Origin: a virus
DNA length: 64,000 nucleotides
IMG/VR virus record: IMGVR_UViG_3300043436_001160
Span: 5,422-69,421 of that record
Direction: 5' to 3' (one strand)
Below the pieces are notes generated by a model. It was not told where the DNA came from, did not search any database, and saw only the letters and a list, made by a program, of their open reading frames with translations. Position numbers and translations under genes: made by a program. Within the stretch, counting starts at the first letter, position 1. Each line of letters opens with the position of its first letter. Of the stretch, positions 60,619 to 63,183 are shown one piece after another.

Positions 60619-60681
60619 CTACCGTCGCTTCCTCCTAGGTAGGTCCCTAGGAGGAAGCTTTCGGCTGCGCTGTTGCAGCAA
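60619..60681 (+). repeat. Structured intergenic element, copy 1
   Basis: CTA-CCG-TC-GCTTCCTCCTAGG-loop-CCTAGGAGGAAGC-TTT-CGG plus a hairpin around GCTGTTGC. Confidence 0.8.
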
Positions 60682-60713
60682 TGTTCAGAGGTGTGCTAAC
60701 ACAAGGAAGCACA

Positions 60714-61115
60714 ATGGTTATTGCATTCGCTATCGGTTTTGTCGTTCTCGCAATTGGTATGATCTACCTTGCCATGATTGGAAAGGAGGTGGATCGCAGC
60801 CCTGACTACAATGGTCCTAGTTTCATTGACCCCCCAGAATCATGGAAGGGAAAGGTAACATCCGTTACCTTTGTCAAGCGGAGTGGAGAACTTCGACACA
60901 TGCAACTTATCGTGCTGCACGTCACTCGTTTCAAAACGGGTAAAGTCCTAATTCATGGACTTGAAATGGCAGAAAACCAGTGGAACCCGAAAGGGTTCTG
61001 CTTGGACCAAGTGTTGGCATTGAAGGTAATCGACATTCCAAACGAGCAGGAACTTGCAGAGGCATACTGCCTTTATCGGGTATTGTCAAACCCAAACAAC
61101 AACAACAATAACTGA
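60714..61115 (+). CDS. TM-anchored protein with SH3/WYL-like beta domain
   Basis: AAGGA SD before ATG 60714; TM; VTFVKRSGELRHM motif. Confidence 0.6.
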   Translation: MVIAFAIGFVVLAIGMIYLAMIGKEVDRSPDYNGPSFIDPPESWKGKVTSVTFVKRSGELRHMQLIVLHVTRFKTGKVLIHGLEMAENQWNPKGFCLDQVLALKVIDIPNEQELAEAYCLYRVLSNPNNNNNN

Positions 61116-61198
61116 CAAACTAGGGGCCGCGCATCTTTCACGCGGAACTGTACACTACTAACAGATCAAATAGTAGGAACGTCAAACTAGGAGAAGTT

Positions 61199-63115
61199 AT
61201 GAAACTTCACTACTTTGGTAAGGGTGAAATCAATCTTCACGATCTGATTCAGGTCGTGATGCCAGCCCACATTGCGGCTGGTAATGATCCCACGGACTTT
61301 AGTCCAGTGGGACGAATTCTCGGACAGCTCGTTTCGACGGGCTGCTACTCCATGATTCCTATTCCCTATCGACAGGGAAACAAGGAATATGTTGGCTGGC
61401 AATTGCGTCGTGCCCCAGGCACGACAATTGACAAGATCATGGCAGCAGTGCCAGAAATCAATCAGATTGGGTTGCCACACAAGGCGGGACTACACATTGC
61501 GGATAATGTCCGCTTCCAAGTCAACGAGGGAATGCTTCCTCTTGTTGAAGGGCTCATCTCCCACTACGGGCGAAAGCCGTACGAAATGAATCGTGACGGT
61601 AAGACCGTTACGGTCATTGAGGATGTGTTCCTTACTGAACACATCCAGCGATGGGAGTACGAGTCCGTTGTAAAGGCGGACTCGGGTGAAGCGTTCACCT
61701 TCGCCCATTCACTTGACAGCCGTGGGGGTCGCCAGTACCCCAGCACGGCTGGAGTGTTGGATTGGGATGGTCGCATGATGCGGTCATTTCCAACAATGCA
61801 GACGGGTGAAGCGTCTGCTTTCCTCCGACTGGCCGATCCAGTCAATGTCTCGCGGGAGTACTGCGAGAAGGTTTGGATTCCCGCAGTGATGCGGGAGTTC
61901 AAAGTGAGAAGGGAACAGATCCTTGACTGCATGGATGCAGAAAAGGCTTTAACCTTTGCCACTTCTCCAGACAGTCCACTCAAAAAAATTGGTAAGAAAA
62001 AGAGGAACGTGCTGGGTTTCCTTGCTCAGTGTGGTTTCATCCAAGAGGCATTGGAAACAGGACGTTCGCATGGCTACATGCCGTCTTTGGATGGCCATGC
62101 TAATGGAGTTCTGTCTCAGTGTCTCGCTTATGGCGAAGAAACACTGAAAACCATCCTTATTTACGGGGATTTGTATAGGTTCTTCATTAAGAACCAAGAA
62201 ATCCCATCTTTCGCAACAATGGAGGTAAATAATTATCTCCAGTCACGAGATTGGATGAAGGCGGCAGCACAGCCTGCTACCTATACTTCACGGTTCCTGG
62301 CACCCGTGTTTGTCTACGGGCCTGCTAGCGGAGTAGATCTGGGATGCCATCCCAGTGATTTCACAAAGGATCACAAGATCATTCGTGATAAGTTGAATCC
62401 ACAACTTCCAGTGTTGGCTACAATGGAGGATCAACAGATTCTTCAGCTGGCTGAAAAAGCTGGTGACATGGCTCTTGCAGCTATGTACCGTTCGATTCCC
62501 AGAACAATGGGAGTGGTAGATACTTGGCTGCGAACAGCCAAAGCAATCCACTCCGAAGGTCGAACCATCAAAACCCACTGGAATGGGTTTGAAGTGGAAC
62601 ATTGGGGAGCTGAGCCAGCATTGGATTGGTTCCCTGCCGACGAGAAAGGAGATCGGAACCTTCCCACGGTTTCGATCACCGTGCCTTCAAAGTACCGTGA
62701 GTACTTTGAGAGTAGGAAGTGGCCTACTAGGTACCAACCAACGTGTGCCCCGTTTGTAAAGGGTACACGAGATGAGGATGGCAATGTTGTATTGCCTTAC
62801 ACCCCATCAGGAGAAATCAATACCACCCACACTCCCAACGGGAGTTCGGTGCGGTTGGTTTCGTTGTGTGACGGTCACACGTTGACCGACACAATCGAGC
62901 AACTGGGTGATAACTTTGTGGCTTCGCGTCACGATGCAATCACGGTACGCCCAACTGAGGCATACCTTACCTTGCCACACATGTACGCAAAGAACATGTG
63001 GTGGCGGTGCCAAGATCTCCGTGCTGCCGTGGCAGTGGTTATTGGAGATAAGGACTTTGGGCCTATGATGCCCGAGGCTGAATTCCTTGGCCACAGTGCC
63101 AACGTAATGAAGTAA
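61199..63115 (+). CDS. Second, highly diverged T7-type RNA polymerase-like protein (short N-terminus)
   Basis: In order: LDSRGGRQYP, LDGHANG, DLY, RDWMKAAAQPATY, HWNGFEV, VSLCDG, RHDAI; AGGAG SD. Confidence 0.8.
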   Translation: MKLHYFGKGEINLHDLIQVVMPAHIAAGNDPTDFSPVGRILGQLVSTGCYSMIPIPYRQGNKEYVGWQLRRAPGTTIDKIMAAVPEINQIGLPHKAGLHIADNVRFQVNEGMLPLVEGLISHYGRKPYEMNRDGKTVTVIEDVFLTEHIQRWEYESVVKADSGEAFTFAHSLDSRGGRQYPSTAGVLDWDGRMMRSFPTMQTGEASAFLRLADPVNVSREYCEKVWIPAVMREFKVRREQILDCMDAEKALTFATSPDSPLKKIGKKKRNVLGFLAQCGFIQEALETGRSHGYMPSLDGHANGVLSQCLAYGEETLKTILIYGDLYRFFIKNQEIPSFATMEVNNYLQSRDWMKAAAQPATYTSRFLAPVFVYGPASGVDLGCHPSDFTKDHKIIRDKLNPQLPVLATMEDQQILQLAEKAGDMALAAMYRSIPRTMGVVDTWLRTAKAIHSEGRTIKTHWNGFEVEHWGAEPALDWFPADEKGDRNLPTVSITVPSKYREYFESRKWPTRYQPTCAPFVKGTRDEDGNVVLPYTPSGEINTTHTPNGSSVRLVSLCDGHTLTDTIEQLGDNFVASRHDAITVRPTEAYLTLPHMYAKNMWWRCQDLRAAVAVVIGDKDFGPMMPEAEFLGHSANVMK

Positions 63116-63124
63116 TCAACAACC

Positions 63125-63183
63125 CTACTGTCGCTCCCCTAGGTTCGCCTAGGGGAGCTTTCAGTTAGGCTGTTGCCTAACAA
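63125..63183 (+). repeat. Structured intergenic element, copy 2
   Basis: CTA-CTG-TC-GCTCCCCTAGG-TTCG-CCTAGGGGAGC-TTT-CAG plus TTAGGC-TGTT-GCCTAA. Confidence 0.8.

Follow-up and report, generated by a model that had tools for sequence, protein, structure and literature searches.

The early precursor RNA of bacteriophage T7 is processed at five signals. The ideal substrate of RNase III is a helix of 22 base pairs (bp), and loops or bulges limit its cleavage to one strand, such cuts leaving stabilising hairpins at the 3′ end (available text of PMC3867540). Phage HK022 carries two put RNAs of ~70 nucleotides (nt), which share a common sequence and form two stem-loops each (available text of PMC9378689). 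In the promoters of phage N4, conserved bases flank variable stems and a short inverted repeat surrounds a GC-rich heptamer; the hairpin is extruded from duplex DNA and it is the template-strand hairpin that is recognised (available text of PMC4496689). Here, we describe a structured RNA element of ~75 bases, which occurs twice on the + strand of a freshwater, T7-like phage, in a 64,000-nt stretch (hereafter, the window) corresponding to bases 5422–69421 of the 69,421-bp virus record IMGVR_UViG_3300043436_001160 (a 69.4-kb genome). Copy 1 (60609–60686) and copy 2 (63115–63188), both matches to a covariance model, bracket a small open reading frame (ORF) and a 638-aa ORF that is predicted to encode a second T7-type single-subunit RNA polymerase, RNAP2. 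The element has a conserved, covarying fold on the coding strand, lies at stop codons and is linked to the RNAP2 gene. The first-pass annotation of this stretch had proposed that the two copies are either RNase III-type processing sites or N4-like DNA hairpin promoters; the former is the explanation that we tentatively prefer.

Fold, covariation and position of the elements

The two copies share the motif that had been read in them at first pass. In copy 1, CTACCGTC is followed by a 13-bp stem with a 6-nt loop, TTTCGG and a small hairpin; in copy 2, the order is CTACTGTC, an 11-bp stem with a 4-nt loop, TTTCAG and again a small hairpin. The pattern CCTAGG-N2-10-CCTAGG had 2 matches, compared to 0.00 expected by chance, and GTCGCT-N8-30-AGCTTTC also had 2, compared to 0.03. 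The 13- and 11-bp perfect stems are among the longest perfect hairpins of the genome, in which two other 12-bp stems are present. On the + strand, the RNA folding z-scores of the copies were -4.4 and -6.4, and none of 200 shuffles reached as good a fold, whereas the structure of the other intergenic stretches of the module was not significant (z of -0.2, -0.95 and +0.57). Covariance models detected exactly two + strand copies in the window and genome positions 1–5500, with scores of 104.7 and 50.8 bits for model R1 (next unrelated match, 10.8 bits) and 91.8 and 73.3 bits for model R2 (next match, 11.8 bits). No match to the elements was found in Rfam 15 even at E up to 5, the matches above the gathering score in the window being three tRNAs.

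A pattern scan of viral contigs yielded copies in two close relatives (L001/L128 and L002/L126) and five further contigs (L122, L124, L125, L129 and L131), and the covariance model added second copies in L125, L129 and L131. Furthermore, all ten metagenome loci fetched via the 638-aa protein carry at least one copy, and the element is present even where the protein is only 41% identical. A looser pattern scan of viral contigs returned 118 stretches, of which a hairpin filter left only those from L001 and L002 as genuine; a flank-independent pattern scan produced no further family members, and the element pattern had 0 matches in cellular genomes. The resulting alignment has 19 rows representing 18 distinct copies, two from the window and 16 from related uncultured phages, each genome carrying 1–2 copies. 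Conservation in related phages, which the first-pass annotation had set as a check, is thus borne out by 16 further distinct copies. Between the window and L001, the elements are 100% identical (78/78 and 73/73 columns); the adjoining ORFs share 68–86% DNA identity, and for the remaining non-coding stretches the value is 94–96%. At copy 1, similarity between the two genomes starts precisely where the stop codon meets the edge of the element (window 60600–60612, L001 3400–3412), as if this edge were a recombination boundary.

In the predicted fold, the element forms a long irregular hairpin consisting of a basal helix P0 (5–8 bp), an internal loop, P1 (3–4 bp), a 2×3 internal loop and P2 (10–13 bp, GC-rich), capped by a tetraloop or hexaloop; the three helices total ~19–24 bp, roughly two helical turns. 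In copy 1, the 5′ strand of P0 lies at 60612–60616, P1 pairs 60622–60624 with 60662–60664, the internal loop sets 60625–60626 against 60659–60661, and P2 is a perfect 13-bp stem (60627–60639 with 60646–60658) closed by the 6-nt loop 60640–60645. In copy 2, the P0 5′ strand lies at 63117–63121, P1 pairs 63128–63130 with 63162–63164, and P2 is a perfect 11-bp stem (63133–63143 with 63148–63158) with a UUCG loop at 63144–63147; the inner stems of 13 and 11 bp are therefore those claimed at first pass. An alternative hairpin, hp2, follows in both copies, at 60665–60678 and 63165–63180. Its loop (60670–60674) is the 3′ strand of P0 in copy 1, and in copy 2 the 3′ strand of P0 is the loop plus one base (63171–63175). 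Directly 3′ of copy 2 there is a third small hairpin on the + strand (CCUAU...AUAGG, 63183–63200), which reads CCUGU...ACAGG in L151, L150 and L154. In L146 (6915–6990), the upstream element is kept and copy 2 is absent after the polymerase gene, its site being occupied by a different GC-rich hairpin followed by the third small hairpin as in the window.

Across the 18 distinct copies, standard pairs occupy 96.8% of the cells, compared to 35–53% when the partners are slid. Both sides of the pair have changed in 14 of the 26 pairs, whereas the mean over shuffles is 6.0 and none of 500 shuffles reaches 14. Compensatory changes are present in every helix, with both-side changes in 5/13 pairs of P2, 2/3 of P1, 3/4 modelled pairs of hp2 and 4/6 of P0. 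The difference in stems with preserved pairing that was first noted between the two copies (CCG/CGG versus CUG/CAG in P1) extends to CCA/UGG and CCC/GGG in the relatives. The top of P2 is always CCUAGG or a compensated variant. The 2×3 internal loop at its base (2×2 or 2×3 in two variants) is unpaired in all 18 distinct copies, and in two of them its UC/UUU becomes AA/AA or AA/GAA. The hexaloop UAGGUC is kept in 7 of the 8 rows of the copy-1 type.

P0 connects the 5′ flank, located at the upstream stop codon, to the complementary apical loop of hp2, and both strands change together: the pairs seen are AACAG(C)/(G)CUGUU, CAACA/UGUUG, CGGCAC/GUGCCG, AAAGC/GCUUU and AACGAU/AUCGUU. P0 is 86.5% paired, compared to 25–40% in 4 of the 5 other slides having at least 70 cells. 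Since P0 and hp2 occupy the same bases, we read them as alternative folds. The two forms are roughly isoenergetic: the minimum-energy fold is the long P0-P1-P2 hairpin in 13 of the 18 distinct copies, and in the remaining 5 the two-hairpin form with hp2 is favoured by 0.5–2.1 kcal/mol. A true pseudoknot of P0 and hp2 appears unlikely, as zero linker would be left between the helices. We also considered the CTGTT of hp2 as what we take to be the motif of a class II T7 pause signal and rejected it, as the relatives substitute other sequences that remain complementary to the 5′ flank.

Several observations bear on the strand and the nature of the nucleic acid. Among the P2 loops of the copy-2 type, UUCG occurs in 3 distinct rows (4 alignment rows), GAAA in 6 and UUUU in 1. 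Four cells contain G-U pairs, which would become A-C on the opposite strand. On the + strand, the model scores 91.8 and 73.3 bits, as opposed to 33.9 and 31.7 bits on the − strand. Because the apical loops alternate between UUCG and GAAA, and the few wobble pairs are compatible with the + strand alone, the structure is RNA.

This RNA is also found close to the ends of ORFs. Stop codons precede both copies, as reported at first pass (TAA at 60606–60608 and 63113–63115), and in all 18 distinct copies an ORF of at least 36 codons has its stop between -3 and +15 nt from the 5′ strand of P0. By contrast, the start of the next ORF is found at a variable distance, -14 to 193 nt past the element. The close spacing to the stop and the variable spacing to the next start assign the element to the 3′ end of a cistron. 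The best explanation of these data is that the elements are cis-acting structured RNAs in + strand polycistronic transcripts of the GC-rich second-polymerase module.

The second polymerase

The 638-aa ORF (61199–63115, + strand) had no match in Pfam or PHROG, and its identity was revealed only by a fold search. The AlphaFold model of RNAP2, with a predicted local distance difference test score (pLDDT) of 83 and a predicted template modelling score (pTM) of 0.83, matches the RNA polymerases of T7 and mitochondria (Foldseek E of 6e-9, probability 1.00) as well as phage RNA polymerases, although RNAP2 is only 10–15% identical to the known single-subunit enzymes. The family retains an invariant Asp, a Lys...Tyr pair and a His-Asp, at positions that we take to be motifs A, B and C, respectively. 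Protein collections contain 14 homologues. By contrast, tblastn found no match among phage GenBank records, the RNAP2 profile had no match to PDB sequences at E up to 10, and 16 pattern matches of the profile in cellular genomes were all left unconfirmed by tblastn. In hhalign comparisons, the profile was not significantly similar to either the 811-aa RNA polymerase of the same phage (probability 1.5%) or the product of its giant 4182-aa ORF (0.1%).

The 811-aa protein, encoded at 534–2969 on the + strand and matched by PHROG as a T7-type RNA polymerase, is itself divergent, its best phage relatives being only ~28% identical. Thus, the phage appears to carry two single-subunit polymerases, the second by predicted fold. 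A phrase search of the literature for phages with two such polymerases returned none, and nothing was relevant by title or abstract in a broader search. The association between RNAP2 and the element holds in both directions: in addition to the ten loci found via the protein, four of the five contigs found via the element encode RNAP2, and the fifth contig stops ~600 nt past the element.

Processing by RNase III and the competing explanations

The account that we consider the leading candidate, though still a tentative one, is that the elements are intercistronic signals for RNase III-type processing and transcript stability. By analogy with T7, the enzyme would be RNase III. The host enzyme would recognise the two-turn helix and cut one strand at or close to the internal loop beneath P2. 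The stable P2 hairpin would remain at the 3′ end of the upstream message and protect that end; P0 and P1, both short, would come apart, and the downstream message would refold as hp2 at its newly formed 5′ end. Refolding of this kind would explain why both of the mutually exclusive pairings are maintained by compensatory changes.

As a control, four intergenic regions of T7 (RefSeq NC_001604, which carries no annotation of RNase III sites) were folded with the same tool; we take these regions to be the sites R0.5, R1, R1.1 and R1.3 of the series R0.3–R1.3. All four fold with an upper stem of 9–13 bp. In the presumed R0.5, R1 and R1.3, an internal loop separates this upper stem from a lower one, which in R0.5 and R1 starts at the UGA stop codon or adjoins it. 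The elements have the same layout: they are irregular hairpins of ~19–24 bp, compared to the ~20–22 bp (about two A-helical turns) of a T7-type signal, with an internal loop beneath a GC-rich upper stem of 10–13 bp and a lower stem below it, and all 18 distinct copies are intercistronic, on the coding strand and at or next to the upstream stop. Moreover, as the T7 sites resemble one another in primary sequence, so do the paralogous copies of the element, and the two copies in the window bracket a polymerase gene in the same way as T7 gene 1 is bracketed. The layout of the long irregular hairpin starting from the stop codon fits the RNase III part of the earlier proposal, and does so better than could be seen at first pass, whereas homology to the T7 sites was not detectable: the best match of model R1 to T7 positions 800–6600 scored 8.3 bits (E of 0.3) and was not intergenic. 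The elements also differ from the T7 sites in having a conserved alternative hairpin that competes with the basal helix. Two T7 intergenic hairpins (L162 632–699 and 5593–5678) contain GGUCGCUC(UC)UAG, resembling GUCGCUCUCUCCUAGG in some copies of the element. This likeness is probably due to chance, because the bases differ in structural role and the model has no match there.

Apart from this lack of detectable homology, a number of points weigh against processing by RNase III. P1 is just 3 bp long and the helix is interrupted twice, at P0/P1 and P1/P2, whereas T7 sites have one interruption. The covariation in P0 comes from few rows (L124, L125 twice and L129), so that support for this helix is moderate, and the model used to fit the alignment comprised the helices other than P0. 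All 24 sequencing runs containing the stretch are recorded as DNA and come from lake-water metagenomes, with no RNA run among them. The unpaired and junction bases are near-invariant even where RNAP2 identity between two genomes is only 41%. They are far more conserved than those of T7 sites and imply a sequence specificity beyond what RNase III is known to require, which hints at a sequence-specific partner. Finally, T7 has some ten RNase III sites distributed across the genome, whereas the element is present in 1–2 copies per genome, always beside RNAP2. The very small number of copies, their association with the second polymerase alone and the near-invariant junction bases argue against a purely generic nuclease site, and they keep two other explanations, a put-like RNA and a switch sensing translation, in contention.

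In the first of these, the element would act as a nascent-RNA signal that binds the transcribing polymerase, be it the host enzyme, the 811-aa polymerase or RNAP2, and alters pausing, termination or read-through. We regard this as unlikely, yet deserving of attention. Like putL and putR of HK022, the elements are paralogous cis-acting RNAs of similar size (~75 versus ~70 nt) in a phage transcription unit, with two stem-loops, bulges and 1–2 copies, the resemblance being one of form alone. The near-invariance of the junction and loop bases across distant relatives, the tight linkage to RNAP2 (10/10 loci found via the protein and 4/5 contigs found via the element) and a strong terminator ~460 nt downstream of copy 2 would also fit. 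However, the put sites of HK022 are located just downstream of early promoters and act on the host multisubunit polymerase, whereas the elements are found at the ends of ORFs in all 18 distinct copies, and a scan for promoters of the sigma-70 type found no promoter-like site near them. A put-like signal would also leave the two mutually exclusive folds unexplained, and we know of no RNA of this kind for single-subunit polymerases.

The coexistence of two near-isoenergetic folds, both kept by compensatory changes, would be accounted for by a bistable switch or protein operator, in which a terminating ribosome or a phage RNA-binding protein selects between the long hairpin and hp2 and so tunes how the adjacent cistrons, RNAP2 among them, are expressed or degraded. 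The overlap or abutment of the P0 5′ strand with the stop codon and the conserved hexaloop UAGGUC (in 7/8 rows of the copy-1 type) are compatible with such a role. Its probability is nevertheless rather low: no candidate binding protein was identified, the next start codon lies at a variable distance, and the overlap with the stop is shared with the T7 sites taken to be R0.5 and R1 and may therefore reflect tight packing alone. More broadly, it is unlikely, though worth bearing in mind, that the element is a dedicated two-state RNA of the second-polymerase module, either a nascent-RNA signal read directly by RNAP2 or a sensor of ribosome termination that sets the amount of the polymerase.

Factor-independent termination, or pausing of the phage or host polymerase, is improbable as the function of the elements. 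Intrinsic terminators likewise have a GC-rich hairpin after an ORF, and in the elements this strong hairpin, directly 3′ of ORFs, is followed by UUU in 16 of the 18 distinct copies; copy 2 was also listed as terminator-like in a consensus scan. The U run, however, is three bases long (UUU and then C or U), with AAAGG or GAAGG in its place in the other two copies, whereas the evident intrinsic terminators of this phage (window 29578–29607 and 63647–63680, genome 4699–4726) have at least five U. Furthermore, the additional covarying helices P0, P1 and hp2 would have no role in a simple terminator. Conventional U-tract terminators after the capsid gene (29578–29607) and after an early ORF (genome 1817–1860) carry CCTAGG or CTAGG-GAAA-CCTAG stems, matching the tops of the elements.

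It is very improbable that the element is a novel self-cleaving ribozyme acting on the polycistronic transcript, a proposal in keeping with the intercistronic phage context, the invariant unpaired CUA before P1 and a compact, conserved, possibly pseudoknotted fold. No known ribozyme family matches the elements even at E up to 5, the change of the internal loop from UC/UUU to AA/AA or AA/GAA in two copies is unlike a catalytic core, and the pseudoknot of P0 and hp2 would have zero linker.

An N4-like DNA hairpin promoter for a virion or minimal polymerase, the second proposal of the first-pass annotation, is suggested by the perfect inverted repeats, by conserved bases that flank and enter hairpins whose stems vary with pairing kept, by the unusual single-subunit polymerases of the phage, among them the minimal one encoded next to the elements, and by the 4182-aa ORF located among the virion genes. 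It is nonetheless scarcely credible, since the covariation spans internal loops and a long-range helix, neither of which a cruciform would favour, the wobble pairs fit the coding strand only, the loops alternate between UUCG and GAAA, the conserved 5′ part, which overlaps the stop codon upstream, has to be in the same strand as the hairpins, and the giant ORF had no similarity to polymerases in Pfam, PHROGs or hhalign, albeit in weak tests. N4 promoters are short DNA hairpins in supercoiled duplex upstream of early genes, with stems of 5–7 bp and 3-nt loops; the elements appear to be longer, multi-helix RNA folds at the ends of ORFs, with stems of 10–13 bp and loops of 4–6 nt.

Genomic setting and significance

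All sizeable ORFs of the phage are on the + strand, and the PHROG matches reveal a T7-like gene order. Besides the 811-aa RNA polymerase, they include primase-helicase, DNA polymerase, exonuclease and ribonucleotide reductase for DNA metabolism, terminase, and the portal, capsid, tail-tube and tail-fibre proteins of the virion. Three tRNA genes (Arg-TCT, Leu-TAA and Lys-TTT) are located in the DNA-metabolism region, at 7056–8322. There are also four large + strand ORFs of 277, 1347, 1016 and 4182 aa. The 1016-aa ORF contains at least five units of an 18-nt tandem repeat (47317–47465). The 4182-aa ORF (47716–60264) closes the virion gene block, and its sole weak matches, at residues ~610–758, are to an RNase H-like or exonuclease domain. 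A search for a phage promoter consensus among repeated 10-mers and 13-mers (up to 2 mismatches) of 22 intergenic regions gave only A-rich words.

The elements are located past the virion genes and the 4182-aa ORF, at the right end of the record and beside a terminal repeat; their assignment to an early region was not confirmed. The repeat comprises 273 nt present at both ends of the record (window 63728–64000 and genome 1–273), with 3 mismatches and 1 indel; in L001, this region is single-copy and the sequence continues into the left-end genes. A block of ~4.9 kb straddling the repeat (window 60300–64000 and genome 1–1200) has a GC content of 47–50%, as opposed to ~36% elsewhere, and the GC jump after the giant ORF is also seen in L001, L122, L124, L125 and L126. 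Comparison of relatives across this block shows stronger conservation of non-coding DNA (94–100%) than of the ORFs (68–86%). Upstream of copy 1 is a 68-aa ORF (60402–60608, + strand) with a weak zinc-ribbon-like match, the stop of this ORF abutting the element; a different ORF occupies this place in L001. Copy 1 is followed by the small ORF (60716–61115, + strand; ~133 aa from the ATG at 60716 or 144 aa from that at 60681), which has no family match, and then by the RNAP2 gene and copy 2. Further downstream on the + strand lie an 82-aa ORF (63390–63638) and the conventional terminator at 63647–63680, a hairpin with a U-tract that contrasts with the elements.

Taken on its own terms, the element defines a well-supported structured RNA family of uncultured lake phages, with clean covariation and no match in Rfam 15. 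If the elements are indeed of the RNase III type, T7-style polycistronic processing would extend to a very distant and much larger T7-like lineage, and the family would represent a natural case in which the substrate fold and the post-cleavage fold both appear to be under selection. The strict linkage of the element to a previously unrecognised, highly divergent polymerase provides a first handle on the expression of this enzyme or on its recognition target.

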